A stretch of 64,000 nt of DNA from an uncultured Lentisphaerales bacterium (GTDB taxonomy: Bacteria > Verrucomicrobiota > Lentisphaeria > JABSQK01 > UBA12247). The stretch is from the NCBI GenBank assembly GCA_943788985.1, contig CALSSJ010000018.1, positions 64,001-128,000 of the forward strand. Reading direction: 5' to 3'. Of this stretch, positions 18,242-46,075 are shown piece by piece. Position 1 is the first letter of the stretch. The number at the start of each line of letters is the position of its first letter. Both the position numbers and the translations under genes were made by a program. Under the pieces are notes generated by a model. It was not told where the DNA came from. It made no database searches and saw only the letters and a list, made by a program, of their open reading frames with translations.

Positions 18242-18321
18242 AGCGGCACTATTTTCCGCCAGTGGCGGCCCAGTGTTCCGCCTTCAACACTACGTCTTAA
18301 CTCATCGATGAATCCCCTCGT

Positions 18322-21274: not shown

Positions 21275-21284
21275 TCGAGTCTCG

Positions 21285-25333: not shown

Positions 25334-25355
25334 GAGCTGGCGGGTGAGAACTGGC

Positions 25356-26897: not shown

Positions 26898-27022
26898 GAT
26901 ATGGGTTCCTTTGGTGTCGCTTATTGTCGCCACATCAGTCGTGCGACAGAGATACCGCGCCGCGCTATTGGCCCCTTTTGGGATTCACGGCAAGATGAGC
27001 ACAGAAATCAAGGAAACTATAG

Positions 27023-29754: not shown

Positions 29755-30720
29755 ATGATGCAAAACCGATTTCTTTATTCCGCGCTTTTGGCGGCTCTCC
29801 TGTTCTCGCTGTGCGTATCGCAGGTTTGTGCAAATCCAGACATGCTTCCTAAGATCGATCAGGCGCTGGCTGGGCTAAAAACAAAGGTAGAGGTGAAAGC
29901 ACCGTACAAGGTGCTGGTGTACCATCAGGCTTCTGGGTATAAGCACCCTTCCATCCCAACCATCAATACCTGCTTTCAGCGCATGGGCGAAGTCACGGGT
30001 GCCTTCAGTGCGGACCTGAGCGGCGACGCGGCAGAACTGACGGCTGAGAAGCTGAAGGGATACGACTTGGTGATTTTTAATAACACGACGAAGATTCAAA
30101 AGGTGTTTACGACGCCGGAGCATAGGGCAGCGCTGTTGGATTATGTGCGAAATGGGGGCGGCCTCGTGGCGATTCATGCTGCCACGGATGCTGGGTTCCC
30201 GCAGTGGCCGGAGTACACGAAGATGGTAGGCGGTGTCTTCGACGGCCACCCTTGGACGGCCAACGGCACGTGGGGGATTCGCATCGAAGACCCGAAGCAT
30301 TGCTGCATGGATCATCTGAATGGCGAAAGCTTCACGCTGAAGGATGAGTTGTACAAGTTCAAGGAATACGATCGCGTGAATCAGCGCGTGCTGGCGACAG
30401 TAGATACACAGGTGTCGCCGAAGGGGGCTAAACAGCGCACGGACAACGATCATGCGCTGGCTTGGCTGCGCGAGTATGGCAAGGGCAAGGTATTTGTCTC
30501 GGCATTCGGGCACAATCACTCGATTTGCTGGGATCAGCGTATTTTGCAGATGTGGCTGAACGGGATTCAGTTTGCTGCTGGGGATCTAGCCTGCGAGACC
30601 GAGGCGCTGGTGCGGCCAGAGTGGCAGAAGGAGCCAACGCCGGAGGTTAAGGAAGAACCGAAGAAAGCTAAGAAGCGGCGCAAGAAGCCAGCTCAAGGCA
30701 GGAAGAAGGCTAACCAGTAA
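29755..30720 (+). CDS. Secreted ThuA domain protein
   Basis: Signal peptide; KVLVY..GYKH, YDLVIFNNT, GGGLVAIHAA, DELY, GKGKVF...GHN; Lys-rich tail. Confidence 0.88.
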   Translation: MMQNRFLYSALLAALLFSLCVSQVCANPDMLPKIDQALAGLKTKVEVKAPYKVLVYHQASGYKHPSIPTINTCFQRMGEVTGAFSADLSGDAAELTAEKLKGYDLVIFNNTTKIQKVFTTPEHRAALLDYVRNGGGLVAIHAATDAGFPQWPEYTKMVGGVFDGHPWTANGTWGIRIEDPKHCCMDHLNGESFTLKDELYKFKEYDRVNQRVLATVDTQVSPKGAKQRTDNDHALAWLREYGKGKVFVSAFGHNHSICWDQRILQMWLNGIQFAAGDLACETEALVRPEWQKEPTPEVKEEPKKAKKRRKKPAQGRKKANQ

Positions 30721-30979
30721 GCTCCCGCGCGGTGTGTCGGACCTAGCGTCGCCAGCTGCAAAACCGTCTCCACCTGCGCAGTTTGCCAGCGATTCCGGTT
30801 CCGGATTCGCGTCGTGTGCGCTTCAATCGTTTGAATTCTGTGCGAAATCGATACAATATTGGCTTCGGGGATCTCAATCCGACAGGCTTCTCGCCTGCGT
30901 TATTCACACTAATCTACTACGAGCGCCTGATGCATTCACTCTCAGCAATTGACGTTGCTTGCCTGCTTCAGCATCTGTG

Positions 30980-31778
30980 ATGAGCGTTTCCTACCAGGCA
31001 ACTCAAGATCATGTCGGCATGGTGCGACGGCTGCGCCGCGGGATCAATGGTCTAGGGGCACGCTGCCGTTGCTGCTTCTGCGAGACAAGCTTTTGGAAGT
31101 TCTCGAAATATCGAGGTGGCTGGGAAGCGGTTTCTTCGTATCTGCGCGAGCTGGATTGGGTGAGCAGTGAATTCGATCATTTCTGGTGCCCGTTTTGTCG
31201 TAGTCATGATCGCGAACGGCACTTGAAGTACTTTTTTGATGCGCTCGATTTCTGGCGTCGTTTTGAGGGGGCAGTAGTGCTGCATCTGGCACCGGAGAAG
31301 CACTTGGGCCGTTGCATTGAGTCATGCGGGCCAGAGCGTTATTTGCAGGGGGACCTGGTGCCGGTGCGTGAGACGATCGAGGTAGTGGATGTGACAGATA
31401 TTCACGAGGAAGATGATAGTTTTTGACGTAGTGCTGTGTAATCACGTACTGGAGCATGTGCCTGAGGATGCGAAGGCGTTGGGAGAGTTGTTTCGGGTGC
31501 TAAAACCGGGCGGCGTGGCGATTCTGCAGACACCGTTTGCGGCGAAGCTCGGTAAGACGCGCGAGCGCGACCCCGAAGTTACGACAGAGGCGCAGTGCCT
31601 GGAGTTTTATGGCCAGGAGGATCATGTCCGCTTGTATGGCACGGACTTGATGGATCGGATTGGCGCGGCCGGCTTCGAGTTGGATTTGCAGACGCATGAT
31701 GCAGTGCTCCCGGAATTGGATTGTGGTGTGGCCGGTGTGAGCAGGAATGAGCGGTTAATTCTAGCGCGTAAGGCCTGA
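30980..31778 (+). CDS. Class I SAM-dependent methyltransferase with N-terminal Zn ribbon; one frameshift
   Basis: CPFCRSHDRER, VLHLAPE, then FDVVLCNHVLEHV, RVLKPGG, GQEDHVR; extra T in the run at 31420-31424. Confidence 0.8.
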
Positions 31779-31818
31779 GATTTTTTGATTTTCAAACGAA
31801 GAGACCGGCGAGGGCAAG

Positions 31819-33057
31819 ATGAAGAGAGTACCACTGGAAAGTTTAAATCGGCGTAGCTTTTTGAAGGTCGCCGGTACGGCGGCTGTCGGGCTGCCCAATA
31901 TCATTACGTCGAATGCGCTGGGCGCGAATGGCGTGCCGGCGGCGAGCGGGCGCATCGTCATGGCCGGGCTTGGCATGGGCGGAAGAGGGCAGGGCGTCTT
32001 GGGCGAGTTCCTGAACTTCAAAGAGATCCAGGTGGTGGCTGTCAATGATGTGCAGAAGAACAACCTGAAGGGCGCTGAGAAAAGGGTTAATGGCAAATAC
32101 GGCAACACCGATTGCGCAACGTACGAGGACTATCGTGAGGTACTGGCACGCAGCGATATCGACATGGTGTTCTGTGGCGCGCCGGATCACTGGCATGCCC
32201 AGATGATGGTGGATGCCTGCAAGGCTGGCAAAGATGTGATGTGCGAGAAGCCGCTGACTTTGACGATTGGCGAAGGACGTAAGATCGTGGATGCGGCGCG
32301 TCAATACGGTCGGATTGCCGCTGGCGGGAGTCAGCGTGTGCTGCAGGATTTTGGCCGCGCAGCCTGTGCGGCGAACAGCGGGCGGTTCGGCAAGGTGCTA
32401 TCGGCCAACGCCAATCCCGGCGGCCCACCTCGGCCTTGCTATCTACCAGGCCAACCTGTGCCGGACAATATCAACTGGGATCTTTGGTTGGGGCCAGCAC
32501 CTTGGGCCGAGTACCATGCGTATCGCTGTGGCCGGGCCTACAACTTGGGCGGCAAGGGATTTCGCACTTGGGAAGACTACTCTGGCGGGATGATGACGGA
32601 TTGGGGCGGCCACAAGTTCGGCGCAGCTCTGCATGGCTTGAAGGTGGATCACACGGGGCCTAGCGAGATTCGTCCGCCCAAGGATGGCGAGCCTCTGACT
32701 TACGTGTTTGCGGACGGGAAGACGCTCAAGGTGCAGGACGGGCCTGCCTTTGTCTGCGAGGACGGCAATGCTGAGAAGAATAGCATCCGCGATCTGAAGG
32801 TCCCAGCTGGGCTGCGCTGGTACTCAGGCGGGGCGAATTCGCTGGTGGGTGATTTCATTCACTGTGTCAAGACCCGGCAGTCTCCGTTTCGGGACGTGGA
32901 ATGGGCGCACCGCACGGCGACGGTTTGCCATCTGGGCAATATCGCGCTGAAACTGAAGCGCCCGCTGAAGTGGGATCCGGTGAAGGAAGATTTCATCGAT
33001 GATGCTGAAGCCAGCCGCATGGTCGACCGGCCTCGCCGCGGACCGTGGCAGATTTAA
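31819..33057 (+). CDS. Tat-exported Gfo/Idh/MocA oxidoreductase
   Basis: NRRSFLK, G.GGRG, PDHWH, CEKP, GSQR, WDLWLGPAP, DWGGH. Confidence 0.93.
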   Translation: MKRVPLESLNRRSFLKVAGTAAVGLPNIITSNALGANGVPAASGRIVMAGLGMGGRGQGVLGEFLNFKEIQVVAVNDVQKNNLKGAEKRVNGKYGNTDCATYEDYREVLARSDIDMVFCGAPDHWHAQMMVDACKAGKDVMCEKPLTLTIGEGRKIVDAARQYGRIAAGGSQRVLQDFGRAACAANSGRFGKVLSANANPGGPPRPCYLPGQPVPDNINWDLWLGPAPWAEYHAYRCGRAYNLGGKGFRTWEDYSGGMMTDWGGHKFGAALHGLKVDHTGPSEIRPPKDGEPLTYVFADGKTLKVQDGPAFVCEDGNAEKNSIRDLKVPAGLRWYSGGANSLVGDFIHCVKTRQSPFRDVEWAHRTATVCHLGNIALKLKRPLKWDPVKEDFIDDAEASRMVDRPRRGPWQI

Positions 33058-33069
33058 GGGAGAGGAAGA

Positions 33070-35532
33070 ATGATGCACACATATAAACTGATCTTTTTGG
33101 CGTTGGCGATGCTGGCGCAGTTCGCGGTTGCGGACGTCTGGGATGAGCTTGCGAGTTTTAAAGGAACTACAGCGAAGACCGCGCCGCCGACAGTGGTAGA
33201 GGATCTGATCGTCAGTACACCTGCCGATAAGATGGGGCCGATTGAGGCCAAGTTGATTGGGATCGTCACGTCGCCGGAGGCGACGGTGGAGGCGAAGCGG
33301 TTCGCGTGTCGCATGCTGCAGCGTGTGGGGACAGAGACCTGTGTTTCAGCGGTTCAAGGCTTGTTGGGCGATGCTCAGATGGCGCACTATGCGCGTCTTG
33401 TGCTCGAGCGGCTGCCGGAGTCAGCGGTAGCGGGCGATGCCTTGGTGGAGGCTTTGGATAGCGCAGCTGACGGCGCGAAGGCCGGGATTCTGAGTAGCAT
33501 CGGGGTGCGTGGGGATGTGCGATCTACTGCCGCTGTTGCCGCGTATGCAGGCAGCGACAATGCGGCCCATGCGGCCGCCGCGCTTCAAGCGCTCGGGATG
33601 TTGGGCGGAGAAGCTGCCCGCGATGCGCTGGTCGCGGTAGATCTCTCGCCTAGCCCGGCGCTGCAGGCTACCCGTGATGGAGCCCTGATTGTGGCTGCCG
33701 ACGGTTTGAAGGATGCCAAGACATTGGCGAGGATCTACGGGGCGACGAAGGCCGAAGGGGTGCGTATGGCTGCACTTCGCGCGCTGATTCGTGCCGATGA
33801 GGCGCAGGCTGTGCCGATCGTGAGTGGGCTGATCGCTGGTGAAGATTCCCGCGTGAGAAATGCCGCGTTGTCCGCGTTGGGCCGAGATGGCGGGGCTGCG
33901 CTCACCGCTGCGGCCGTGGCCACGCTGGGGACCCTGCCGACGGACAGGAAACTGGTCGTGATTGCAGTGCTGGGCCAACGAGGTGATGCGACAGCTATTC
34001 CCGGGATTCAGGCGTATGTGGAAGCGGAAGATGCCGCTGTTGGGGAAGCGGCGTTGATGGCGCTGGCGGCTCTGGGTGATGGCACGACCGTGCCAATCCT
34101 GTTGGACTACGCAGAGGGGAGCCGGAAAACTGCTGCGCTGGAAGCTTTGCAGGCGATGACTCACCCAACTACGAACGGCAGTTTGATCGTTGAACTGCAG
34201 AACAATGACCGCAGTGTGGCGGCATGTGACGCTCTGGCTAGGCGCGCAGCCAAGGAAGCCAAGCCAGCTCTGAAAGCACTCACGACTCACGCTGATCCGC
34301 TGGTGCAGCGTGCTGCCTGGAGCGCGCTGGGCGCCACGGCCACGATCGCCGATCTGGATGAGTTGATGACCCAGGCGCTGTCGATTGAGGATGCGAAGAC
34401 CGCGAGAATGGTGTATGGCTGCGTGCGTGCAGTGAGTGCCGTCGCTACGGACAAAAATGCGTGTATCGAGGCTGTCGGCAGGCACTACGAGAGTGCAGAT
34501 CAGTATGCCAAGATGTTTATCCTGGATCTTGCCGCAGCAGGCGGGAGCAGCAAGGGGATTGAGTACGCGAAAAGTGCGCTGGCATCTGGAGACGAAAAGC
34601 TGTACAACAAGGCGGTGCGCTCGCTGGCAGCCTGGTTTGAACCCGGACCTGCAATAGGAGAACTACTGAATCTGGCGCGCAATGCGCCGGAAGAGAAAAA
34701 TCGAATCCTTGCCCTGCGCGGGTATCTGACACTGGCGGGCAAAGAACAGAACGCGACCAAGGCACTTAAATGGTTGAAGGATGGCCGTGAGCTGGTCCAG
34801 CGTGCGGAAGACAAGCGCTTACTGATCGCCGGGACCGACCGCGGGAAAAACCACAAGCTTATCGAGTTGATTTACGGCTACACGGAGGACGCAGAGGTGT
34901 CCGCAGAGGCTCGATTGGTGGTGTTTAAGATGGCAGATCTGCTGCATCGTCGGAAGAGGCCGGTTCCAGCTGAGGCCATCACTGCTCTGAAGCTGATCGT
35001 TGCGGATCCAGCAAGCGATGCTGCGACCGTGAAGCGGTCCAAGGAAATTCTGGAGAAAGCAGCGAGTACGAAAGCCCCGAAGAAGAGGATCGCCGAGAAG
35101 AAGGCCGATATTATGCGTAACTGGCAGCTGGCTGGCCCATTCAGCGGGGCGGAAAAACTGTTTCTACACGCCTTTATCCCGGAAACTGCGGCGGGCGAGG
35201 TGACCTGGCGCGAGGTGACGGATGCGGACTTCTCTGGAGATCAGATTGACTTCATGAAGACGATGAAGGGCGCCAATCGCGTCGCTTATGTGAAGACCGT
35301 GATTCCCACGAAGAGGGCCCGGACAGCCCGGCTGGAACTGGGCAGCGACGATGGCGTGAAAGTTTGGTTGAACGGTACACTGGTGCATGAGAAAGATGCG
35401 AGGCGCGAGTGCAAGATCGGCGACGATGTCCTTAGCCTGTCTCTGGTGGAGGGGCAGAACCAACTTCTGGTTAAGGTTGTGCAGTATGCCGGGAATTGGG
35501 GATTCGGTGCTCGCCTCGCGCTAACTCCATAA
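33070..35532 (+). CDS. Secreted HEAT-repeat protein with a C-terminal beta-sandwich domain
   Basis: Signal peptide; repeated A..ALG..G helices; NWQLAGPF, LELGSDDGVKVWLNG, G.NQLLVKV.Q..G.WGF. Confidence 0.8.
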   Translation: MMHTYKLIFLALAMLAQFAVADVWDELASFKGTTAKTAPPTVVEDLIVSTPADKMGPIEAKLIGIVTSPEATVEAKRFACRMLQRVGTETCVSAVQGLLGDAQMAHYARLVLERLPESAVAGDALVEALDSAADGAKAGILSSIGVRGDVRSTAAVAAYAGSDNAAHAAAALQALGMLGGEAARDALVAVDLSPSPALQATRDGALIVAADGLKDAKTLARIYGATKAEGVRMAALRALIRADEAQAVPIVSGLIAGEDSRVRNAALSALGRDGGAALTAAAVATLGTLPTDRKLVVIAVLGQRGDATAIPGIQAYVEAEDAAVGEAALMALAALGDGTTVPILLDYAEGSRKTAALEALQAMTHPTTNGSLIVELQNNDRSVAACDALARRAAKEAKPALKALTTHADPLVQRAAWSALGATATIADLDELMTQALSIEDAKTARMVYGCVRAVSAVATDKNACIEAVGRHYESADQYAKMFILDLAAAGGSSKGIEYAKSALASGDEKLYNKAVRSLAAWFEPGPAIGELLNLARNAPEEKNRILALRGYLTLAGKEQNATKALKWLKDGRELVQRAEDKRLLIAGTDRGKNHKLIELIYGYTEDAEVSAEARLVVFKMADLLHRRKRPVPAEAITALKLIVADPASDAATVKRSKEILEKAASTKAPKKRIAEKKADIMRNWQLAGPFSGAEKLFLHAFIPETAAGEVTWREVTDADFSGDQIDFMKTMKGANRVAYVKTVIPTKRARTARLELGSDDGVKVWLNGTLVHEKDARRECKIGDDVLSLSLVEGQNQLLVKVVQYAGNWGFGARLALTP

Positions 35533-35555
35533 AAAAAGATGTATTATGATTTGCG

Positions 35556-35564
35556 TGCTATAGT
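35556..35564 (+). promoter_or_regulatory. Possible extended -10 promoter for the MFS operon
   Basis: TGcTATAGT in an AT-rich gap ~65 bp before the MFS start. Confidence 0.35.
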
Positions 35565-35629
35565 ACCCAGCAATTTGAGTCATGTTCGCGATTGCGGGAA
35601 AAACGGTTAACAAACGGGGAGAAGGCAAA

Positions 35630-37285
35630 ATGGATAATCAGCAAGATCAAGCGGTAGCCAGTCAGACGGGAAGCCACCACGGGCTTAGTGAACGAGAAAA
35701 AATAATGTTGTTCTGGGCGAGTTTTCTTGCTCTGACAGCGGCGGGTGTCGGCTTTGTGCTGCGTTCGCTAGCGGGGACTCAACATTGGGGCGCCGCCTTC
35801 GAAATCACCAACGATCAGGTAGGGGCCTTGTTTGGCGCTGGTCTGTGGCCGATCGCGATCACCATGATCCTTTTTAGCCTGGTCGTAGATAAGGTCGGGT
35901 ACAAGGCGTCGATGATGTGTGCGTTCGCGCTGCAGGGGATTGCCGCGGTGTTGACGATCTATGCCAACAGCTTTAACACCATGCTTGTGGCTTGCCTGGT
36001 TGCGGGCCTTGGCCATGGTATCGTCGAAGCCTGCATTAACCCGCTCTGCGCCTCCATCTATCGGGACCAGAAGAGCAAGATGTTGAACATCCTACATGCT
36101 TCTTGGCCGGCAGGTATCGTGATTGGCGGCGTGGTCTATCTGACCATGTTTACGGGCGCCACAAGCTGGGCCGAGGTAAGTGGCTCTTTCTGGTTCATGT
36201 TCCTGCCTGTGATCGCCTATGGCGTGATGTTCCTGATGTGCCATCACTACCCGGTCGACGAGCGTGTCGAAGCCAAAGTGCCGATGAGCGAGATGCTCAA
36301 GGAATTTGGCGGGCTTGGTGCCTTTATCGCCATCACCTTTCTATTCTACGAAATCTCGAACCAGGTCCCCGCACTGGGTGCAGCGCTGGCTGGCGACATG
36401 GGGCCATTGCCTAAAAAGCTAGCAGTCAGTATCATTGTCGGGATCATTGGCGGCGCGTTTTTTGGCGGCGTGGTTAAGTCCCGTGGTAAGATTCTGTTCT
36501 TTATCCTCTGCCTGATTATGATTCCACTGGCCACTGCGGAGATCGCAACGGACGGTTGGATTCAGAAGCTGATGCGCCCGACCATGGGCGAGTATGCGGG
36601 CTGGGCGCTGGTTTTCTCAGCCGGGATTATGATGGGACTGCGCTTCTTCGCTGGTGTACCGCTGAAGTTTATGTCGCCTCCAGGACTGTTGCTGCTTAGC
36701 TCGGTGTTTTCGATCATCGGCTTGTTCGCGCTATCGATGGCTGACGGTCTTCTGGTCTGGTTTGCCTTTGTCTTCTACGCCATCGGCCAGACCTTCTACT
36801 GGCCTACGGTTCTTGGCTTTGTCGCCGAGCAGTTTCCGAAGGGCGGGGCGATGACCTTGAATACGGTTTCAGCGATGGGACTGCTGACGGTAGGCATTTT
36901 TGGCTTTCCCTTTCTTGGCGCGGTGCAGGATGCCTACACGACCAAAGCCGTGGAGAAGACTCAGCCAGCGTTGGTCCAGAGCTTGCGGGCTGAAGGAACC
37001 ACCTTTACCAACGCCGAGGGCGCAGATGTGCCGATCCTTAACAGGAACCGTCTCTTCGGTGTGAAGTACGATGCGATCAATGCCGAAGAGGTCAAAAAGC
37101 AGATCACAGATGAAGCTGCGCTCGCCGTTCTCGACAAGGATCTCACGCAAGTAGGACGCAGTACGCTGCGAGTCGCGGCTGTATTGCCGAGCATCATGGC
37201 GATCTCCTTCTTGCTGATCATGATCTGGTATCGCAGTCAGGGTGGATATAAACCTGTGCATCTGGTCCACGAGGAAGACGCCTGA
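35630..37285 (+). CDS. MFS transporter (sugar permease-like)
   Basis: About 14 TM; LVVDKVGYK, G.VEA.INP, LNILHA.WPAG, FYWPT.LG.VAEQFPKGGA. Confidence 0.9.
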   Translation: MDNQQDQAVASQTGSHHGLSEREKIMLFWASFLALTAAGVGFVLRSLAGTQHWGAAFEITNDQVGALFGAGLWPIAITMILFSLVVDKVGYKASMMCAFALQGIAAVLTIYANSFNTMLVACLVAGLGHGIVEACINPLCASIYRDQKSKMLNILHASWPAGIVIGGVVYLTMFTGATSWAEVSGSFWFMFLPVIAYGVMFLMCHHYPVDERVEAKVPMSEMLKEFGGLGAFIAITFLFYEISNQVPALGAALAGDMGPLPKKLAVSIIVGIIGGAFFGGVVKSRGKILFFILCLIMIPLATAEIATDGWIQKLMRPTMGEYAGWALVFSAGIMMGLRFFAGVPLKFMSPPGLLLLSSVFSIIGLFALSMADGLLVWFAFVFYAIGQTFYWPTVLGFVAEQFPKGGAMTLNTVSAMGLLTVGIFGFPFLGAVQDAYTTKAVEKTQPALVQSLRAEGTTFTNAEGADVPILNRNRLFGVKYDAINAEEVKKQITDEAALAVLDKDLTQVGRSTLRVAAVLPSIMAISFLLIMIWYRSQGGYKPVHLVHEEDA

Positions 37286-37322
37286 CCGGCTGCGGCAGAC
37301 TATGCAAAAAAGGAAGAACGAG

Positions 37323-38687
37323 ATGAACGCATCCGAAAGTTCTGAGGGAGTAACTCGCAGAGATTTTGTTCGCTCGGTGGCGGCAGCCGGGGCTGTGCTT
37401 GCAGCCAACGGTGCCCCGCTGGCCCGAGCTACGAATGCCGCTGCGTTGAGTGCAGATACGCTCAATGTGGCTGTGATCGGCACTGGCCAGCAGGGCAAGG
37501 GAGCTTTGATTGAGTCTTCCGTACCTGCGATTCCAGGCATCCGCTACAAAGCGGTTTGTGACATTTGGGATAAGAACCGGAATGCTGCGGTCGACTATCT
37601 GAAGCTCTATGGCCATGAGCCCAAAGCCTACGTGGATTACCAGGAAATGCTCGCTGCGGAGACCGATCTGGATGCGGTGATCGTGGCGACTCCCGACTGG
37701 ATGCACGCCGAGCACACTATTGCCGCCCTAGAGGCTGGCCATCATGTGTACTGCGAGAAGGAAATGTCCAACTCGCTTACCGGCGCGCGGGACATGGTTC
37801 TGGCTGCACGTAAGGCCGGAAAGCTGCTGCAAATTGGGCATCAGCGTCGCAGCAACCCGCGCTATATTCACGCGGTCCAGCGGCTGGTGCACGACCAGAA
37901 GCTGCTCGGGCGGGTTACCCATGCAAATGCCCATTGGAACCGCTCTATCGCCGCAGCCCGTGACATCGGCTGTAGCTACGCTGATGTGCTGCCAGCGGCC
38001 ACGCTGGCGAAGTATGGCTATGCCTCGATGCAGCAGTTCTTGAACTGGCGTTGGTATAAAAAGTACGGTGGTGGTCCGATTGTGGATCTAGGCTCGCATC
38101 AGATCGATCTTTTTGAGTGGGTCTTCGAGACCACACCACGGTCCGTGGTTGCCTCAGGGGGGATCGACTTCCACACGCATCACGAGTGGTATGACAACGT
38201 CTTGTGCATTTATGAGTACGAGACCGATCACGGCATCTGCCGCGCGTTCTATCAGACGCTCACCACTAGTTCACACGGCGGAAACTCCGAAGCTTTCATG
38301 GGCGAGAACGGCACGCTGCTGATCTCCGAAGTGGAAGCACGCGGTAACGCGGTCGAGAAAGAGAAGCATGCGCCGGATTGGAACATTCTAGTGCAGCAGG
38401 GGCTGCTGAAGGCAGAAGGCCAGAAGGTCGTGCAGACCAAGACCAAGAATACGTGGCTGGATGCTCGCGAGAGTCCCGGATTGCCCGCTTGGCCGCTGCC
38501 GATTGAGCTGGCCAAGAAGCCGCATCAACCGCACATGGAGAATTTCTTTGACACCATTCGTGGCAAGTCGGAGCTGAATTGTCCCGGGGAAGTCGGCTAT
38601 GCGACAGCGTTTGCGGTACTGGCGGTCAATGAAGCGGTGCGTACCAATGAGCGCATTATCTTTACGCCCTCCGATTTTCACGTATAA
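37323..38687 (+). CDS. Tat-exported Gfo/Idh/MocA oxidoreductase
   Basis: TRRDFVR, IGTGQQG, TPDWMH, YCEKEM, IGHQRRS, NWRWY, DLGSHQID. Confidence 0.93.
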   Translation: MNASESSEGVTRRDFVRSVAAAGAVLAANGAPLARATNAAALSADTLNVAVIGTGQQGKGALIESSVPAIPGIRYKAVCDIWDKNRNAAVDYLKLYGHEPKAYVDYQEMLAAETDLDAVIVATPDWMHAEHTIAALEAGHHVYCEKEMSNSLTGARDMVLAARKAGKLLQIGHQRRSNPRYIHAVQRLVHDQKLLGRVTHANAHWNRSIAAARDIGCSYADVLPAATLAKYGYASMQQFLNWRWYKKYGGGPIVDLGSHQIDLFEWVFETTPRSVVASGGIDFHTHHEWYDNVLCIYEYETDHGICRAFYQTLTTSSHGGNSEAFMGENGTLLISEVEARGNAVEKEKHAPDWNILVQQGLLKAEGQKVVQTKTKNTWLDARESPGLPAWPLPIELAKKPHQPHMENFFDTIRGKSELNCPGEVGYATAFAVLAVNEAVRTNERIIFTPSDFHV

Positions 38688-41644
38688 TGCATAGAAACCT
38701 GATGCCAAAATTTACCGCGGTCGTCCTACTCCTAGCGATTGCCTGGACTGTCTCAGCGGCACACGATTGGGACGGCAGCCCGGTTCTGCCCGTGCATCGT
38801 ATTCCGCTGCACGATGAAGATGGCGTGAAGATTCTGTCCGATGCGGAGAACGCCAAGCCGATCTCCGCCCGGGCTACCTGTATCCAGTGCCATGACTACG
38901 ACGCCATCCAGACCGGTTGGCATTTTAGTAGCGAGGGCGATCTCGAAGGACGCGCGACAGAACCTTGGGTGATGGTGGACGAGAAGTCCGGCACGCAGTT
39001 GCCGATTTCTCGCCGTGGTGCTGCTGGCACTTGGGCACCAGAGCATCTCGGGATGTCGGACTGGGACTTCATCAAGCAGTTCGCGCGTCACATGCCTGGC
39101 GGCGGGCCAGGGGAGGGCGAGCGTGCCGCTGCGGATCCGGACTCGCGCTGGACCGTCTCTGGGGATCTAGAGATCAACTGCTTTGTCTGTCACAACACTG
39201 GACCGCATCAGGATATGACCGAGTGGGTCAAACAGATCGCGCGGGAGAATTTTCGCTGGGCGGCCACGGCGGCTGCCTGCCTAGGCGAAGTCAGCGGCAT
39301 GGCCGCGCGCCTGCCAGCCACTTGGAATCCCTCCGACGGCCCGGACCCGGATGACCTGATCTATCGCGTACCACCGAGCGTGACCTATCCCGAGACGCTT
39401 TTCGACAGCAAAGACCGCGTGGTTCTCGATTTGGGCAAGCCGACTGACGCTCGCTGTATTCAATGTCACGCTGTTGCCGAAGTCGGCAAAGCCAAGCATC
39501 ATGTCACCGGCGATATTCACACGCGGGCCGGAATGGATTGTATAAGCTGCCATAGCAACGGGATCGACCACAAGATCGATCGCGGTTCTACCGGCGCGTT
39601 TTCCTGCGCTGGCTGCCATGGGCTGGAGGACAGCGAGGCTGATATTGGGTCCTATGGGGCACCTATTCCCGAGCACAAAGGCCTGCCACCGATCCATCTA
39701 GAGAAAATGGCCTGTACCGCGTGCCATTCCGGTGTAGCGATCGACCACGGTCCTTCACTGGTGCGGACGTCCAAGATTAACCGGCTGGGGATCCACGGCC
39801 GGGCACAGTGGATGATTGAAGCACCGCAGATTCTCGAGCCAATCTTCAAACGCGACGGATCCGGCAAGATTGCCCCGCATCGCATGATGTGGCCCGCCTT
39901 CTGGGCACGGAGTAGTGGCGATGACCTGAAGCCGCTGGACGCGCAGGACGTGATGGCCCAGAGCAGCGACATTCTGGATCCTGCCATGGTTGTGGCGAGC
40001 GTCTTGTCCCGGCTTGGCAAGATCAAGGACCAAGACGGGTATGCTTACGGGCAGCCGGTGTTCGTCAGCGATGGCATCGTCTACCAGTCGACAGCGGATG
40101 GTGGTCTGGACCAGCACCCGTACAACGGGGAGATTCCAGGAGCGTTTCGTTTCGGCTACATTGTAGATAACGCACTGCTGCCGATTGCGGAGCCGTACGA
40201 CGCGGAGGAGGAGAATGGCTTCTATTATCTCGACGAGAGCCGTCAGGAGCATGTGATCAGCGTCTTGACTGCGTTGGCGGAGATCGCGCCCGATGGTACT
40301 ACACCCGCCTGGATTCTGGGCTCGAAGCTGCATAGACTTCAGAATGTAGAGTACGCATTGTTGCCCGCCGAGGAGTTTGCCCAGCTCAAGCAGGACGCCG
40401 AGAAGGCAAAGGTGGCTGTCACGACGCTGGCGACGAAGCTGGACGTCGCTACTGAAGTGGATGGCACCAAGCAGAAGTTCTATCGCAAGAGCGACAAGAC
40501 CGAGCTCAAGGCGTCGCGCTCGAAGACGCCAGAGCTCTACAAGCTCAAGGTGCTAATGAAGGAACAGCGCAAGGCCGAAGCGAAGCTGAGCGAGCTGGAA
40601 GTCATTGGCGACAAGGCCTATCGTAACACCTTCCAAAAGAACACCTCGCAGTACCCGGTGATCGAAGAGTTCAAAGGAACATCTAATACTGCCTGGGGCT
40701 GGGTGAAAGATGATCAGGCTCAACCGCTTGTACCGGACTATGTCGGTGCGTTCGTGACCGCGACAGGAGGTGGCGACACCGTTGCATTTACGGAGAAACA
40801 GATCGCCATGGCTTTGGAAAAGCTAGGCGAGGACGTGGTCTACGTTTCAGGGGGAAAGGTCTTTAGTCGCAACGCGGATGGCTCGCTGAAGGCGTCTGAG
40901 CATCAGCGGGCGGAGCCGGTATCCTGGCCGCTCGGTCATGATGTGCGGCCAGCCGCACAATCGCTCGGTGCCAAGGGCTGCGCAGAATGTCACAGCGCCG
41001 ACGCGCCCTTCTTGTTTGCGAACGTTGCAGCGCAGGGGCCGTTGCAGTCAGACCAGACTGCCACAGCAACCATGGCTGCCCACATGCAGCTGGACAGCAG
41101 CTATCATCAGCTCTTCGGCCTGAGCTTCACTACCAGGCCGCTGTTCAAGGCGATCATGCTGGCCCTAGCCATCATCGCCTTGCTGGTGCTGGCGGCCTAC
41201 GCCCTGTCTGGCATTCGAGGACTGTCGCAGCGGGCCGAGAAGCCAAAGCTGGCAGCAGCTGCGATGACCGTAGGGGCGATTTCAACTGTGATCCTCGCCC
41301 TCACCGGTTTTGGCGGAGACTGGACTGGTGGGCTGGGGGGCTATATGCTGCTTGTTCACGTAGGCGTGGGCGGACTGTTTGCTGCCTGCCTTGCCTTGGT
41401 TGCGTTGCTGAAAGCCCACGATCATGGCGCAGGAGGCTCGTGTTACGCTCGGAACGCTAGTTTCTGGACCATGATTGTCTGCGGAATTGTCTTGATTCTC
41501 AGCATTCTCGTGTCGATGGTGCCACTGCTCGGAACTGCCGGGCAGCACAGCGCTCTCCAGGTGCATGAAATCGCCGCGGCGGTGTTCCTGGTGGCGGCAG
41601 CCGTCTACGCGATCTCTAGACGGAGCTGCAAGTCGGGAGCATAG
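38687..41644 (+). CDS. Membrane-anchored multiheme cytochrome c (7 CxxCH) with a C-terminal ~5-TM His-containing domain
   Basis: Sec signal; CIQCH, CFVCH, CIQCH, CISCH, CAGCH, CTACH, CAECH; TM His in LLVHVG and QVHEI; TAATG coupling to the upstream gene. Confidence 0.88.
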   Translation: MHRNLMPKFTAVVLLLAIAWTVSAAHDWDGSPVLPVHRIPLHDEDGVKILSDAENAKPISARATCIQCHDYDAIQTGWHFSSEGDLEGRATEPWVMVDEKSGTQLPISRRGAAGTWAPEHLGMSDWDFIKQFARHMPGGGPGEGERAAADPDSRWTVSGDLEINCFVCHNTGPHQDMTEWVKQIARENFRWAATAAACLGEVSGMAARLPATWNPSDGPDPDDLIYRVPPSVTYPETLFDSKDRVVLDLGKPTDARCIQCHAVAEVGKAKHHVTGDIHTRAGMDCISCHSNGIDHKIDRGSTGAFSCAGCHGLEDSEADIGSYGAPIPEHKGLPPIHLEKMACTACHSGVAIDHGPSLVRTSKINRLGIHGRAQWMIEAPQILEPIFKRDGSGKIAPHRMMWPAFWARSSGDDLKPLDAQDVMAQSSDILDPAMVVASVLSRLGKIKDQDGYAYGQPVFVSDGIVYQSTADGGLDQHPYNGEIPGAFRFGYIVDNALLPIAEPYDAEEENGFYYLDESRQEHVISVLTALAEIAPDGTTPAWILGSKLHRLQNVEYALLPAEEFAQLKQDAEKAKVAVTTLATKLDVATEVDGTKQKFYRKSDKTELKASRSKTPELYKLKVLMKEQRKAEAKLSELEVIGDKAYRNTFQKNTSQYPVIEEFKGTSNTAWGWVKDDQAQPLVPDYVGAFVTATGGGDTVAFTEKQIAMALEKLGEDVVYVSGGKVFSRNADGSLKASEHQRAEPVSWPLGHDVRPAAQSLGAKGCAECHSADAPFLFANVAAQGPLQSDQTATATMAAHMQLDSSYHQLFGLSFTTRPLFKAIMLALAIIALLVLAAYALSGIRGLSQRAEKPKLAAAAMTVGAISTVILALTGFGGDWTGGLGGYMLLVHVGVGGLFAACLALVALLKAHDHGAGGSCYARNASFWTMIVCGIVLILSILVSMVPLLGTAGQHSALQVHEIAAAVFLVAAAVYAISRRSCKSGA

Positions 41645-41649
41645 GGTTA

Positions 41650-42426
41650 GTGGCCTACAGCTTTCATCATAGCGCCATGAACTCGCCCTTCGAGATTCAC
41701 ATTGCCGGGCAGGACGAGAACTATGCGCGGCAAGCTGCCGGTGCGTTTTTCCGGGGCATCGACCATCTGGAAAACAATCTCAGCCGCTTTCTCGAGGACA
41801 GCGATATCGCGCGCATTCGACTCTTAATGCCAGGGCAAGTGTTACAAGTGAGCCCAGAGACGATGGAGTGCCTGCTGGTCGCCCTTTGGGCCTATCGCGA
41901 GACCAGTGGAGCTTTCGATGTCATGCTCGGCGAGGGTATGGATGCGTTGCGCCTGGACCCGGAGAGATTGAGCGTGAGCTGCGAACTCCGCAACCCGGCC
42001 GTAGACCTCGGCGGAATTGGCAAAGGCTTTGCGCTTGATCGGGGTGCCGAGATCATGGCAGAGTGGGATATTGAGCATGCGCTGCTGGTGGCTGGCCCCA
42101 GTACGATGCTGGCGCTGGGATCGCAGGATGGTGTGCCGTGGTCCGTCGGGCTCAACGGCACAGCAGTAGACTTAGAGGATCAAGCGCTGAGCGCGTCCGG
42201 GAAGGATGTCCAGGGCGCTCATGTGCGCGACCCGCGAGCTGGCGTCGAAGCCACAGGTCACGAAAAGGCCTGGGTACTGTGCCCGTCTGCCGCGCTGGCG
42301 GATGCGCTCTCCACAGCCTTTATGGTGATGAATCGCGAAGAGGTCGCAGACTTCTGCCGAACTCATCCAGAAATCCGGAGTCATGTTTTAGACCAACATA
42401 GTACGTTTACATCTTACAATCAGTAA
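41650..42426 (+). CDS. apbE: FAD:protein FMN transferase (ApbE family), no signal peptide
   Basis: AM.S.F.I, LSRF..DSDI, TSGAFDV, DLGGIGKGFALD, SASG, H..DPR.G, AALADALSTAF. Confidence 0.88.
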   Translation: MAYSFHHSAMNSPFEIHIAGQDENYARQAAGAFFRGIDHLENNLSRFLEDSDIARIRLLMPGQVLQVSPETMECLLVALWAYRETSGAFDVMLGEGMDALRLDPERLSVSCELRNPAVDLGGIGKGFALDRGAEIMAEWDIEHALLVAGPSTMLALGSQDGVPWSVGLNGTAVDLEDQALSASGKDVQGAHVRDPRAGVEATGHEKAWVLCPSAALADALSTAFMVMNREEVADFCRTHPEIRSHVLDQHSTFTSYNQ

Positions 42427-42451
42427 TCCCACACAAACGACAGGACACACC

Positions 42452-43105
42452 ATGAAGACCACTCTCACACTCGCAGTACTCCTCCTCTTTAGCGCGCCTG
42501 CTATGATGGCCCAAGCCGTAGTCCCGCTGAAGATTGAGTTGCCTAAGCCGATGTTTGTCGGGACGCCGAAGACGGTGAAGTCCGGCAATCTTGAAGCGGA
42601 TCGCAAGAAGAAGCCACGCCCACCGGTCATGGTCCCGAAGGACGTCGAAAATGTGGCCGCAGACATGGTCGTGAGCAGCAGCGACATGTTTCCCGTGATC
42701 GGCGATCTTGAGCTGGCAACCGACGGCGACAAGGAAGGTGCCGATGGCAGCTTTGTCGAGCTCGGCCCAGGCAAGCAGTACATCCAGATTGATCTCGAAG
42801 AAACCCGCGCGATCTACGCCATTGTAATCTGGCACTTCCACAGCCAGGCCCGCGTCTATCGCGACGTGGTAGTGCAGGTTGCCGATGATGAGGACTTCAT
42901 CACCAACGTGCGCACGATCTTCAACAACGACCACGACAACTCCTCTGGGCTTGGCATTGGCACGGACAAAGAGTATATCGAGACCTTCGAAGGCCGGCCG
43001 CTGGCAGTAAAAGGCGAGAAGGCACAATTTGTCCGTCTCTACAGCAATGGCAGCACGTCCAGCGAAATGAATCACTACACGGAGGTCGAAGTCTACGGCA
43101 AGTAG
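42452..43105 (+). CDS. Secreted discoidin (F5/8 type C)-like protein
   Basis: Signal peptide; NVA...V.SS, ATDGD, YIQIDL, AQFVRLYSNG, EVEVYG. Confidence 0.7.
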   Translation: MKTTLTLAVLLLFSAPAMMAQAVVPLKIELPKPMFVGTPKTVKSGNLEADRKKKPRPPVMVPKDVENVAADMVVSSSDMFPVIGDLELATDGDKEGADGSFVELGPGKQYIQIDLEETRAIYAIVIWHFHSQARVYRDVVVQVADDEDFITNVRTIFNNDHDNSSGLGIGTDKEYIETFEGRPLAVKGEKAQFVRLYSNGSTSSEMNHYTEVEVYGK

Positions 43106-43145
43106 GCCGACCACACCGCACGTCGACAGAAACAAGGCCCGCTCG

Positions 43146-44711
43146 ATGAATACAACAGTTTTTCGAGTGGGCTTTGTGGTTTGTGTGCTGGTTGCCGCGC
43201 TGTTTCGGGTCATCGATCTCGAGCAGCGCGTTCTGCACAATGACGAGGCCAATCAAGCCTGTCGAGCGGGGCTCTTGCTGGAAGGCGCTGGCTACCACTA
43301 CGATCCAGTAGACCATCATGGGCCGACGCTCTACTACCTCTCTTTGCCGTTCGCTTGGCTCAGCGCTGGTACTGACTTCAGCCGGACTTCGGCCGTAACC
43401 TACCGGCTCCTCCCAGCGCTATTCGGGATTGGCGTTTTGCTGTTGTTGCTGCTATTTCGAGATAGGCTGGGAAGGCCAGCGGTCTTGGCCACCGCGGCAC
43501 TGCTGGCAGTCTCACCAGCGATGGTTTATTACAGCCGCTTCTATATTCAGGAAATGCTCCTAGTCTTCTTTACCGCAGCGGTAATCGTCTGCGGCTGCCG
43601 CTACAGCCGGTTTCCGGGCGTGCGCCAGGCAATGAGCGTCGGACTGTTTCTAGGCCTGATGCATGCGACCAAAGAAACCTGCATCATCGCCTATGCCTGC
43701 CTCGGCGCCGCGATTCTCCCCGCGCTGATCGACATGATGCGCAAGGGTGCTGAAGCGCGGCGCCAGCTGCTCCAGCACGGTCTAGTTATGGTGGCCGTGG
43801 CTGTCGCCGTTTCCGCCATGATCTTTTCCTCGTTCTTCACCCATCCCATGGGCATCATTCACTCGTATACGGCTTACCTGAACTATCTGCCGCAAGGGAT
43901 TGGCGTCGATACAGACCATGTCCAGCCCTTCATGTTCTACCTCAAGATCTTGATTGGGCAGACAAAGGGCGGGCTATTCTGGAGCGAATGGCCAATCATG
44001 CTGCTGGGCCTGACAGGCATCGGATTTTCCGTTACTGGTGCTTCCCGCTGGCTGCCTGACCTTCACCGTGGCTTGGCGCGATTTCTCGTCAGCTACACCG
44101 TGCTGATGACGTTGGCCTACTCGTTGATTGCATACAAAACACCGTGGTGCATGCTCTCTTTTCTCTTCGGCTGGATCCTGCTGGCCGGGATTGGGGCTGC
44201 CGGGCTTTTCGCATCCTGCAAACCACGCGCTCTGCAGGCGGTGCTTGTGGTTCTAGTGTTGGCGGGCGTTTCGCTGCTGGGGCGCTCTGCGCAGCGAGCG
44301 AGTTTTCGGTATGGCGCAGATACGCGAAATCCATACGCCTACTCCCATACGGTCTCCGATCTGCTGAATCTGGTCAAGCGTGTCAATGCCGTTACGGCAC
44401 TGGGAGATGGCTACGCTGCAAAGATTGCCATCGTCACCAATGCCCAAGACGCCTGGCCCTTGCCCTGGTACCTGCGTACCTACCCGAACACCGGATACTG
44501 GTCCACGCAGGACGCTATCCCGGAGGCCTTCGCGCCGGACATCATTGTCTGCTCACTCGAGCATGAGCCTGCGGTCACTGAATCTGTGGGAGACGACTTC
44601 ATCTCAGAGTACTGGGGCCTGCGCAACGAGGTCGTTCTCGCTTTGTACTTGCGGCGTGACCTTTGGGATCGCTTCATGGAATCGCGCATCAAGAGTCATC
44701 CAACTAATTAA
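43146..44711 (+). CDS. GT-C fold membrane protein, Agl23/TIGR03663-like
   Basis: LHNDEA, YHYDP..HGP.LYY, YRLLPALFG, SP.MVYYSR, ATKE, YKTPW, WPLPWYLR. Confidence 0.8.
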   Translation: MNTTVFRVGFVVCVLVAALFRVIDLEQRVLHNDEANQACRAGLLLEGAGYHYDPVDHHGPTLYYLSLPFAWLSAGTDFSRTSAVTYRLLPALFGIGVLLLLLLFRDRLGRPAVLATAALLAVSPAMVYYSRFYIQEMLLVFFTAAVIVCGCRYSRFPGVRQAMSVGLFLGLMHATKETCIIAYACLGAAILPALIDMMRKGAEARRQLLQHGLVMVAVAVAVSAMIFSSFFTHPMGIIHSYTAYLNYLPQGIGVDTDHVQPFMFYLKILIGQTKGGLFWSEWPIMLLGLTGIGFSVTGASRWLPDLHRGLARFLVSYTVLMTLAYSLIAYKTPWCMLSFLFGWILLAGIGAAGLFASCKPRALQAVLVVLVLAGVSLLGRSAQRASFRYGADTRNPYAYSHTVSDLLNLVKRVNAVTALGDGYAAKIAIVTNAQDAWPLPWYLRTYPNTGYWSTQDAIPEAFAPDIIVCSLEHEPAVTESVGDDFISEYWGLRNEVVLALYLRRDLWDRFMESRIKSHPTN

Positions 44712-44774
44712 ACTGGCCTTGCGCAGGCGAGGCTGTGCGATATTTGTCATATCATTTCAGAAAGGATATTTTTT

Positions 44775-45626
44775 ATGAATAGAACGCTCTCGATTTTTCT
44801 GTGCACATTCATCGCGATTGGCGTCGCGACCGCCGCGGACAACAAGCCTGTAAAGGCGCCAATTGTTGGCTATTCCGATACACCGCAGCTTCCATCCGGC
44901 TGGCGGGTGCACGACATCGACCGACCGCAGCCCAAGGTGGTCACCCCTGCAGCCAAGCCGGGGGGGGCACCATCCGACGCTATCATTCTGTTCGACGGGA
45001 CAGACTTGGCCAGCTGGGTTGGCCGCAAGCAAGAAAACCCTAAGAAGAAGAGGTACAACGCCAAGGGCGAGGCGCTGTGGAAAGTGGCGAATGACTATAT
45101 GGAGGTCACGTCGACTGGCGGGATCAGGACCCGACAGAAGTTTGGCGATTGCCAGCTTCATATCGAGTGGCAGACGGAGAATCCGCCCCGTGGCGATTCT
45201 CAGCACCGCGGCAACAGCGGTGTGTTCTTTATGGGCCGCTACGAGATGCAGGTGCTGGATTGCTACGAAAACCGTACTTACGCTGACGGCTCCGCCGGTT
45301 GTATCTACGGGCAGACTGCACCGCTGGTCAATGCCTGTCGCAAGCCAGGCGAGTGGCAGGTGTACGACATTATTTTTCAGGCCCCCCGGTTCAAGGATGG
45401 CAAGCTTGTTTCACCCGCCTACATGACGACCTTCTTCAACGGTGTCCTGGTGCAGCACAAGACTGAGCTGCTTGGCCCAACCACGCATAAGCGGCTGCCG
45501 AAATACAAAGCCCATGGGGCGAAGGAATCGATTTCCCTGCAGGATCACGGCAATCCCACACGCTTTCGCAATATCTGGATTCGCGAGCTAAATCTCGTAG
45601 AGAGCACTGGCAAGAAGGGAGAATAA
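44775..45626 (+). CDS. DUF1080 (3-keto-disaccharide hydrolase family) protein, secreted
   Basis: PSDAIILFDG.DL..W, FGDCQLHIEW, GNSGVF, YEMQVLD, GEWQVYDI, LQDHG..RFRNIWIREL. Confidence 0.92.
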   Translation: MNRTLSIFLCTFIAIGVATAADNKPVKAPIVGYSDTPQLPSGWRVHDIDRPQPKVVTPAAKPGGAPSDAIILFDGTDLASWVGRKQENPKKKRYNAKGEALWKVANDYMEVTSTGGIRTRQKFGDCQLHIEWQTENPPRGDSQHRGNSGVFFMGRYEMQVLDCYENRTYADGSAGCIYGQTAPLVNACRKPGEWQVYDIIFQAPRFKDGKLVSPAYMTTFFNGVLVQHKTELLGPTTHKRLPKYKAHGAKESISLQDHGNPTRFRNIWIRELNLVESTGKKGE

Positions 45627-45649
45627 CGGCTCAATTCTTGTTGCTGCAG

Positions 45650-46075
45650 ATGGGATCTACACCAGGCTTGCTGTTTCATCTTGGCTATCGGTATGGCCTT
45701 GGGACAAACTGTTGCGGCGGTCTGCTCTTTGGCGACAACCGTGGCATTCAACGTGCCAGATCCACCGCCGGACTACCAACCTGGCGATGAGTGGAGTTTT
45801 ATCTACAACGCCCGCTGAATCTGGGGGGCATGTTTAGTAAGAGCGCGTATGGACCTGATGCGGTGGGGTAGGGGCCTCTATGAGCATGCTGTGGGCGGCT
45901 GGCTGAACCCGCTTGGGTTGGACGCGCACACTGATGCACGCAAAGTGCTGAAGAAAGATGAGTGGAATCGGATCACCATCCAAGCAGTGGGCGACACCAT
46001 CAAGACCTGGCTAAATCACGTGCCAGCTGCGCACTGGAAAACCGATAAATACACGCAGGGCTTCTTTAGTCTGGG
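45650..46075 (+). pseudogene. Second DUF1080 gene, degraded
   Basis: Signal-like segment then W.FIYN; GLYE...GWL, KKDEWNRITI...GD.IKTWLN, GFFSL; stops and deletions. Confidence 0.65.

Follow-up and report, generated by a model that had tools for sequence, protein, structure and literature searches.

The locus described here raises the question of how a sugar dehydrogenase working outside the cytoplasm can dispose of its electrons. Enzymes of the Gfo/Idh/MocA family that are exported by the twin-arginine translocation (Tat) pathway carry a bound nicotinamide adenine dinucleotide (NAD) into a compartment without an NAD pool. Their re-oxidation in vivo was left open, with a mention of cytochromes, in a study of such enzymes (bioRxiv 10.1101/2024.03.25.586180). 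The gene run in question occupies positions 29755..46075 (+ strand) of a window of 64,000 nt, the whole stretch of DNA that was analyzed (contig CALSSJ010000018.1, positions 64,001-128,000). A first-pass annotation had proposed that two exported, NAD(P)-bound Gfo enzymes pass electrons through a seven-heme membrane cytochrome into the quinone pool, and that the whole run is one system. The analysis bore out the wiring in broad terms and led to a revised picture: the genes probably encode a periplasmic sugar:quinone oxidoreductase that uses a covalent flavin, and the system would offer exported NAD enzymes a route to the respiratory chain.

NADH is a two-electron donor and cannot reduce heme directly, and thus a flavin step is expected between dehydrogenase and heme. 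The first-pass annotation had assigned no role to ApbE, the GT-C and the discoidin protein. In the proposed mechanism the second Gfo protein of the run (Gfo2), which has a Tat signal, would oxidize a sugar with its bound NAD, and a covalent flavin would take the electrons from the Gfo2-bound NADH. This flavin would be installed by an ApbE protein without signal peptide together with glycosyltransferase partners of the GT2 and GT-C types. The electrons would then pass from seven c-hemes to a heme b domain and to quinone. The direction of electron flow, the quinone acceptor, the flavin and its site are all things that we infer. With one Gfo2-type enzyme per genome, the system would be a net oxidant for the periplasm, and Gfo2 may regenerate the keto-sugar needed by the many other Gfo enzymes of oxidation-elimination glycoside pathways.

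Gfo2 (37323..38687, +) is the presumptive catalytic subunit. It scored above the Pfam cut-off of PF01408, a twin-arginine leader was found in 89 of 99 orthologues, and the catalytic Lys/Asp/His residues were invariant (EK and D-x-x-x-H in 56 orthologues), as in the Rossmann-fold family to which it belongs. An invariant Asp ends the second Rossmann strand, and by this residue NAD is the probable cofactor rather than NADP, which narrows the earlier proposal of NAD(P). The source genome (83.6% complete) has 34 Gfo matches, of which Gfo2 is the sole member of its subfamily (668 bits versus 120 bits for the next paralogue). Gfo2 is distant from characterized enzymes and lies outside the BT_2158 family (81.1 bits on NF058561, cut-off 750). 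Oxidation at C3 is plausible, judging from the neighbouring genes only.

The same 251 genomes of the phylum were searched gene by gene for Gfo2, the discoidin protein, the GT-C, the ApbE subfamily, the cytochrome and DoxX. Gfo2 and the discoidin protein were each found in 51 genomes, the GT-C in 57, the ApbE subfamily in 50 and the cytochrome in 16. The 51 genomes with Gfo2 shared the discoidin protein in 50 cases, the GT-C in 50, ApbE in 49 and all four genes in 48, and only 15 of them carried the cytochrome. The unit is thus composed of Gfo2, discoidin protein, GT-C and ApbE, the cytochrome is an optional part and not a core component as had been assumed, and the remaining genes of the run are loosely associated. 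Where the operon is split, it divides into [exit-Gfo-discoidin] and [GT2-GT-C-ApbE]. In one genome, the sequence of which was partly covered, neither GT-C nor ApbE was matched (G126). Named relatives also occur in Planctomycetota, Aminicenantes and Hydrogenedentes, and the discoidin family comprises at least 7999 clusters.

The distribution of the cytochrome led to the membrane exits. The 36 Gfo2 genomes without cytochrome included 35 with a DoxX/MauE-like protein (E < 1e-38), which is encoded directly upstream of Gfo2 in the fetched loci. The last one, G163, has the discoidin gene in an operon with NqrE-, NqrF- and NqrB-like genes and a fusion of NqrC (FMN-binding; FMN, flavin mononucleotide) with discoidin. 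Each genome thus has one of three exits (cytochrome 15, DoxX 35, Nqr-like 1), and cytochrome and DoxX were never found together. The swap occurs even inside one genus, with the cytochrome in G104 and G218 and DoxX in G137. This indicates that the exits are interchangeable, which is the best evidence for an exchange of electrons between Gfo2 and the membrane. DoxX and Nqr are taken here to be membrane redox proteins. Two further genomes (G101, G221) gave weak DoxX matches, which were regarded as lying outside the module since no gene of it was close by. The Nqr-like operon at L125:3535-8080 (+) has genes of the NqrE, NqrF and NqrB types, and its fusion of an NqrC FMN-binding domain and a discoidin domain is followed by a full discoidin protein.

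The cytochrome gene (38687..41644, +) encodes a signal peptide, a membrane anchor and, fused to the heptaheme cytochrome c part, a cytochrome b domain of the FdnI type, which had been overlooked before. The seven CxxCH motifs are at residues 65, 165, 257, 285, 307, 343 and 765. It was verified that their number, the TAATG overlap with Gfo2 at 38687 and the gap of 5 bases before the GTG start codon of ApbE had been described exactly. Relatives of the cytochrome made up 516 of 8000 scored candidates, and the best 80 of 511 matching stretches of the genome collection were fetched. They were from Kiritimatiellia, other Verrucomicrobiota, Phycisphaerae, Aminicenantes and other groups. Seven heme motifs were found in 73 and six in 7 of the 80 loci. 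Eight further conserved His and Met205 are possible distal ligands, a sufficient number for seven hemes. A Gfo2 orthologue immediately preceded the cytochrome gene in 69 of the 80 loci, which is beyond chance, and the other 11 cytochromes start at most 612 bases from a contig end. Gfo2 is thus upstream of the cytochrome wherever there is room. No such link was seen for the first Gfo protein (Gfo1), and the idea that both Gfo enzymes are wired was given up. The multiheme wire itself held for Gfo2, as the upstream position, the FdnI-like heme b domain and the substitution by DoxX tie it to a membrane exit.

The predicted structure of the cytochrome had a mean predicted local distance difference test (pLDDT) value of 80. 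No sequence relative in the PDB and no Foldseek match at E <= 0.001 were found, and in a comparison with known multiheme families (c3, c7, NrfH, MtrA, CbcL) only a c3 stretch of 72 residues was above the cut-off. The VIA structure search covered residues 816-985 and thus barely touched the heme region. The cytochrome b domain (residues 849-985; 41231..41641, +) could be aligned to 1kqg_C with VIA-align over 136 residues (Z 10.9, root-mean-square deviation 3.6); for a bundle of helices this Z is of intermediate size. It scored below the PF01292 cut-off, whereas its homologues in L015 and L076 were above it. The L015 homologue matched PF01292 with 3e-18 and TIGR01583 with 105.5 bits and aligned to the domain of the window at 3e-10, which assigns the domain to the four-helix family. 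In many relatives it is a separate gene. Instead of the two bis-histidine heme b sites of FdnI, one pair is retained, H891/H960 (87/88 and 88/88), and by the His numbering of FdnI the kept heme is presumably the one on the periplasmic side.

Genes for cytochrome c maturation, for a heme-copper oxidase and of the UbiA family are present in the source genome; a bd oxidase was not found in this genome at its 83.6% completeness. In a region of about 11 kb (G000:C10:208937-219574), a gene of the UbiA family lies near genes for a cytochrome with five hemes and for an FMN-binding domain, which may together form a cytochrome-containing complex of the Rnf/Nqr type. Further multiheme open reading frames were seen at C6:3304-5670 (8 motifs) and C11:40862-47164. 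In an Aminicenantes-like group, a glutamate dehydrogenase gene and a gene similar to phosphoenolpyruvate-utilizing enzymes or pyruvate phosphate dikinase follow shortly downstream of cytochrome b, in some cases before ApbE (several of the loci L036, L039, L040, L058, L059, L062, L068, L072 and L073).

The exits could also be used in the opposite direction, with electrons from quinol or cytoplasmic NADH flowing through the exit to Gfo2, which would then reduce a periplasmic keto-sugar or another acceptor. The Nqr-like exit of G163 includes an NqrF-type NADH module, and many of the carriers are, judging by their names, anaerobes. However, quinol is a poor reductant for NAD by its redox potential, an FdnI-like domain is typical of dehydrogenases, and the neighbouring genes are catabolic. 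Outward flow is regarded as very unlikely, even though a survey of flavinylated systems views them as linking cytoplasmic pools to redox activities outside (PMC8238504).

If a flavin connects NADH and heme, the ApbE gene (41650..42426, +) is the likely candidate for its attachment. The protein belongs to the family of FAD:protein FMN transferases (FAD, flavin adenine dinucleotide), with 119.7 bits on PF02424 (cut-off 25.6), and it represents a distinct subfamily, with 34.7 bits versus 498 on the NCBIfam equivalog. The triad S183, H191 and D218, which corresponds to the Ser-His-Asp triad named in PMC12052999, was invariant in 43 sequences. An aromatic residue, F53, is present at the flavin-stacking position (for which compare PMC4767422) and aligns with a Tyr of the V. 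cholerae enzyme, and the canonical LWGF-type segment is absent. A hydrophobic leader was found in just 1 of 138 sequences, and the protein starts just ahead of the first strand, indicating that the subfamily lacks an export signal. Elsewhere, the source genome encodes another ApbE, the leader of which is lipoprotein-like, and two FMN-binding-domain proteins with canonical motifs. Within the clusters, a true FMN-binding domain was present in G163 only. The motif D..[ST]GA[ST] was found in 0 of 68 Gfo2, 0 of 53 discoidin, 0 of 34 GT-C and 1 of 80 cytochrome sequences, and no canonical motif was present outside of signal peptides in 244 Gfo-like open reading frames from the loci and the source genome. 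The alignment search for ApbE covered 25 chosen genomes. TAG stops that seemed to interrupt three ApbE matches turned out to be located upstream of the start codon. In a database protein of 768 amino acids (P0123), an ApbE of this subfamily is joined with ThuA and DUF1080, and an internal signal-like stretch suggests that it is a read-through or assembly artefact.

The discoidin gene (42452..43105, +) encodes a secreted lectin of the discoidin/CBM32 fold with a Pro-rich N-terminal arm. The F5/8-type match was slightly below the Pfam cut-off. Its model had a pLDDT of 91 (67 for the arm block), and Foldseek retrieved CBM32 and F-lectin/fucose-binding modules at E 1e-7 to 1e-6, in agreement with a galactose-binding-like beta-sandwich. 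W127, H128 and H130 are conserved. The lectin is likely a subunit of Gfo2 or a partner that presents the substrate, its sugar binding being predicted from the model. The flexible arm contains a candidate modification site, Thr38 (42563..42565, +), which was a Thr in 126 of 126 copies from module loci and in 10 of 15 discoidin proteins outside the module; the five losses were extra paralogues. A membrane-anchored protein of 1068 amino acids encoded at L121:5962-9165 (-) has four tandem module-type discoidin domains with the arm Thr in each, and its N-terminus is anti-sigma-like.

The GT-C gene (43146..44711, +) encodes an Agl23/TIGR03663-like membrane glycosyltransferase or flippase (192 bits on TIGR03663, cut-off 126.25). 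It has an H-x-DEA motif in its first loop, conserved in 122 rows, and a WPLPWY motif, which places it in the Agl23 family. The charges of the loops fit the standard GT-C topology, and an inverted topology was thereby ruled out. As archaeal Agl23 moves lipid-linked sugars (PMC11182771), flipping or transfer of a polyprenyl-phosphate sugar is predicted for the GT-C by analogy. Thr38 of the discoidin protein is likely glycosylated by it.

The three enzymes ApbE, GT-C and GT2 are closely linked. The GT-C was found within 1.5 kb of ApbE in 118 of 147 loci (38/59, 28/33 and 52/55 in three samples) and a GT2 at a distance of up to 3.5 kb in 52 of the 105 loci that were long enough (10/41, 15/31 and 27/33); the third sample, from metagenomes, was chosen with a fused query and is biased. 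Eight fetched stretches contained GT2, GT-C and ApbE without Gfo2 (L096, L104, L105, L106, L109, L111, L112, L113). Fusions of ApbE and GT2 were found in both orders (L098 and L228, reversed in P0130). Fusions of GT-C and ApbE made up 26 of 32 long protein matches, and in DNA 2 fused genes stood against 76 separate ones (2/78 junctions). Internal starts were considered as a cause, and none was found in the two fused loci. The GT2 proteins of the module matched polyprenyl-phosphate sugar synthase models best or nearly best, under the cut-off, and they form two subtypes. The locus in the window has no GT2, and a weak candidate that could act in trans (C36:29423-30148) scored 180 versus 185-408 for the module GT2s. 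According to the legend of Fig. 3 in bioRxiv 10.1101/2024.03.25.586180, genes for a GT2 and a GT39 are also present on the fosmid with the AL cluster of Alistipes.

This linkage suggested a specific form of the proposed mechanism, in which FMN would reach the protein on a lipid-linked sugar. A sugar linked to polyprenyl phosphate would be made by the GT2 and loaded with FMN by ApbE in the cytoplasm. The GT-C would bring it across the membrane and attach the FMN-sugar to Ser/Thr384 of Gfo2 or to Thr38 of the discoidin protein in the periplasm, comparable to ArnC/ArnD/ArnT. Export of FAD would become unnecessary. The form would account for an ApbE that travels with GT-C and GT2 rather than with its presumed target and is fused to GT2, for the absence of the canonical motif from the core, and for the similarity of the GT2s to polyprenyl-phosphate sugar synthases combined with a GT-C resembling a protein that moves lipid-linked sugars. 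In addition, the protein with four discoidin domains resembles the multi-flavinylated proteins described in PMC8238504. Several findings do not fit. With the standard GT-C topology an ApbE fused to the GT-C would be periplasmic, which speaks against a strictly cytoplasmic step. G163 has no ApbE of the subfamily and yet retains Thr38 and the GT-C, GT2 is absent from the locus studied here, occurs as two subtypes and has a weak candidate in the own genome, and the metagenome loci are biased. To our knowledge, no ApbE that acts on a sugar is known. Taken together, delivery on a lipid-linked sugar is possible but rather unlikely.

Alternatively, ApbE might modify Gfo2 directly at a D-x-R-x-[ST] site before Tat export, while GT2 and GT-C would separately glycosylate Thr38. 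The candidate site is the loop D380-A-R-E-S384 of Gfo2 (38460..38474, +). A residue with a hydroxyl group occupies column 384 in 83 of 85 rows (64 T and 19 S, with H in one row). The loop aligns Asp on Asp, after a common helix, with the DGLSTAT loop of a DoxX-linked Gfo protein of Fulvitalea, a member of the Bacteroidota (L238), and the homology of the loops favours this route. So does the compartment, as Tat substrates fold in the cytoplasm, and cytoplasmic ApbE proteins exist (PMC12052999). Among the single-contig genomes, G163 alone has no ApbE of the subfamily. The loop is missing from its Gfo2 as well, while GT-C and Thr38 are retained together; this pattern makes the loop the better candidate for a site that depends on ApbE and argues that Thr38 does not depend on ApbE. 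The loop ending in Ser/Thr384 is the likeliest flavin site. However, direct modification gives no account of why ApbE stays beside GT-C and GT2 in split operons or is fused with them, the site deviates from D-x-x-[ST]-G-A-[ST], and G223 has the ApbE subfamily and yet a Gfo2 without the loop. We consider direct modification a tentative option with a probability clearly below one half. The two routes are close, with direct modification fitting the compartment and G163, and delivery on a lipid-linked sugar fitting the gene linkage and the GT2 fusions. At L238:3150-5356 (+), on a Fulvitalea plasmid, the gene for the Gfo with the DGLSTAT loop is followed by DoxX, with DUF1080, sugar isomerase and MFS genes around; no ApbE was found among the eight annotated features of this stretch.

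A number of observations weigh against the sugar:quinone oxidoreductase with covalent flavin, on either route. The genomes are related, and the co-occurrence counts are thus not independent. G008, a fragmented assembly, has the cytochrome without Gfo2 or the discoidin protein. The second His pair of FdnI is kept in just 13/88 and 23/87 sequences and is replaced by Met860 and Tyr974 in the window, so that in most members the quinone site cannot be FdnI's own. None of the core families conserves the motif [ST]GA[ST], the highest count in a family being 5 of 80 proteins. In the Gfo2 loop the hydroxyl is kept at motif position 5 and not at position 7, and the aligned acceptor-Thr position is mostly Glu, Ala or Pro. 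The loop alignment uses one sister sequence, the DoxX of which is weakly related to the DoxX of the module (E 0.037). The genome G223 belongs here as well.

The genes around the core were counted in the 48 cytochrome loci of at least 15 kb. The neighbourhood search had been suggested with the first-pass annotation, and it bore out the association of the cytochrome with Gfo2 and with ApbE (41/48) and showed DUF1080 to be a loose companion (13/48). The discoidin gene was present in 38 of the long loci, the GT-C in 31, a xylose-isomerase-like gene in 21, HEAT in 15, ThuA in 11 and MFS in 3. At least one of ThuA, DUF1080 and the xylose-isomerase-like gene occurred in 27 of 48, and such oxidation-elimination genes recur next to the module in both exit types. 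This recurrence bears on yet another reading, in which Gfo2 would oxidize a glycan installed by the GT-C, ApbE would move a nucleotide-derived group other than FMN, and the link to catabolism would be incidental. A set of GT2, GT-C and lectin is what glycosylation systems typically have, ApbE lacks the canonical LWGF-type segment, and Gfo2 is far from characterized enzymes, all of which would suit such a modification of the envelope or of glycoproteins. Against it, the oxidation-elimination genes are found with either exit and the flavin-stacking aromatic residue of ApbE is retained, and it is regarded as quite unlikely.

It was verified with open reading frame checks and Pfam/NCBIfam profiles that all listed genes of the run are on the + strand, at the places and in the families given before. 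The list was incomplete, as apart from the cytochrome b domain it lacked a frameshifted gene for an S-adenosylmethionine-dependent methyltransferase. The loose neighbours are a ThuA-like protein (29755..30720, +; PF06283), Gfo1 with a twin-arginine leader (31819..33057, +), a secreted HEAT-repeat protein (HEAT_2; 33070..35532, +), which is often found behind Gfo1, an MFS transporter (MFS_1; 35630..37285, +) and a DUF1080 protein of the 3-keto-glycoside lyase/hydratase family (44775..45626, +; PF06439). The closest solved relatives of Gfo1 are 8tdf and 8tdh, and Gfo1 reached 117 bits on the BT_2158 family model, far from the cut-off of 750. The second DUF1080 gene (45849..46075, +, in the stretch 45627-46075) is indeed a dead fragment that matches profile positions 114-173 only; in this stretch a low-depth contig from an RNA run (X2) has single-base insertions at 45872 and 45892. 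The methyltransferase gene (30959..31778, +; profile match) lies between ThuA and Gfo1, was matched in 0 of 48 long cytochrome loci and is not part of the system. Contigs from two runs (X2 and X4) have one base fewer at 31420, which brings its halves into a single frame, and the frameshift may thus reflect an allelic difference or a mistake in the assembly.

Contigs from eight RNA runs of two studies covered parts of the region and bridged the junction of Gfo2 and the cytochrome; they can neither rule out DNA nor demonstrate a single transcript and were not used as evidence. No Rfam match was found within the window, and promoter and terminator scans of it gave numbers near shuffle levels (9 versus 7.2 and 22 versus 16). 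A plasmid search yielded no discoidin or DoxX match, and one of two inspected Gfo matches (H2) was uninformative. Elsewhere in the window, a GH95-like glycosidase, a GDSL/DUF7133 protein and a sugar ABC transporter are encoded at 13682-24459 (+), sulfatases at 124-1632 and 25356-26933, a small cytochrome c at 24632-25513, a Na/H antiporter-PTS IIA gene divided across two overlapping frames at 47970-49680 (+), and a surface protein of 3873 amino acids with FG-GAP, cadherin, Calx-beta and Ig domains at 52240-63858 (-).

Taken together, the system is real, widespread and undescribed, and its core and the main puzzle now lie in the ApbE, GT-C and discoidin genes. No account of the combined system was found in the literature searched, the reach of which ended before subscription journals and supplements such as the cluster tables of PMC8238504. 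The term "Gfo" is absent from the main text of PMC8238504, and "DoxX", "glycosyl" and "discoidin" are absent from the accessible part of PMC11334425. The survey in PMC8238504 dropped genes without signal peptide from its analysis, and the ApbE subfamily described here would escape surveys that filter on export signals. Should FMN indeed be delivered on a lipid-linked sugar, thousands of species could wire exported NAD enzymes to three interchangeable exits without export of FAD, and a new protein modification would unite glycosylation with the attachment of a redox cofactor.

Among the known systems, the Tat Gfo enzymes, DUF1080 and xylose-isomerase-like neighbours are shared with BT2156-BT2159 and AL1-AL4 of the 3-keto-glycoside (oxidation-elimination) pathway, and Gfo1 is near 8tdf/8tdh. 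In contrast, the bound NAD is recycled there with 3-ketoglucose, and no membrane exit is named in the accessible part of the report (bioRxiv 10.1101/2024.03.25.586180); moreover, Gfo2 falls outside the BT_2158 family. LacA is a flavoprotein dehydrogenase. The glycoside 3-dehydrogenases LacABC and ThuAB likewise feed periplasmic sugar oxidation into a respiratory chain and are encoded near DUF1080 (PMC8121099 and PMC9007349), and LacA depends on cytochrome c (PMC8121099), whereas here an NAD-type enzyme is used and the flavin would be added separately. The ApbE-flavinylated extracytosolic systems (NqrC, RnfG, NosR, DUF2271, DUF3570 and DUF4405-linked) also have an ApbE with intact triad beside a membrane electron-transfer protein, but the present one lacks the export signal, a conserved canonical motif and an FMN-binding domain and is in the company of glycosyltransferases. 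ArnC-ArnD-ArnT, GtrABC and archaeal Agl22/Agl23 resemble it in the pairing of a polyprenyl-phosphate sugar synthase-like GT2 with a GT-C, to which a further enzyme at the cytoplasmic face is added in some of them; in the present system a flavin transferase takes the place of this enzyme, and redox proteins are the likely acceptors. FdnGHI and related three-part periplasmic dehydrogenases likewise combine a catalytic subunit exported by the Tat pathway with a redox wire and a cytochrome b that has the four helices of the FdnI fold. The present system differs in its NAD-type Gfo catalyst, a wire of seven c-hemes, a heme b domain that usually has one His pair, and an exit that can be replaced by DoxX or an Nqr-like complex. 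The electron exit alone thus resembles FdnGHI, and the new part is the combined core.

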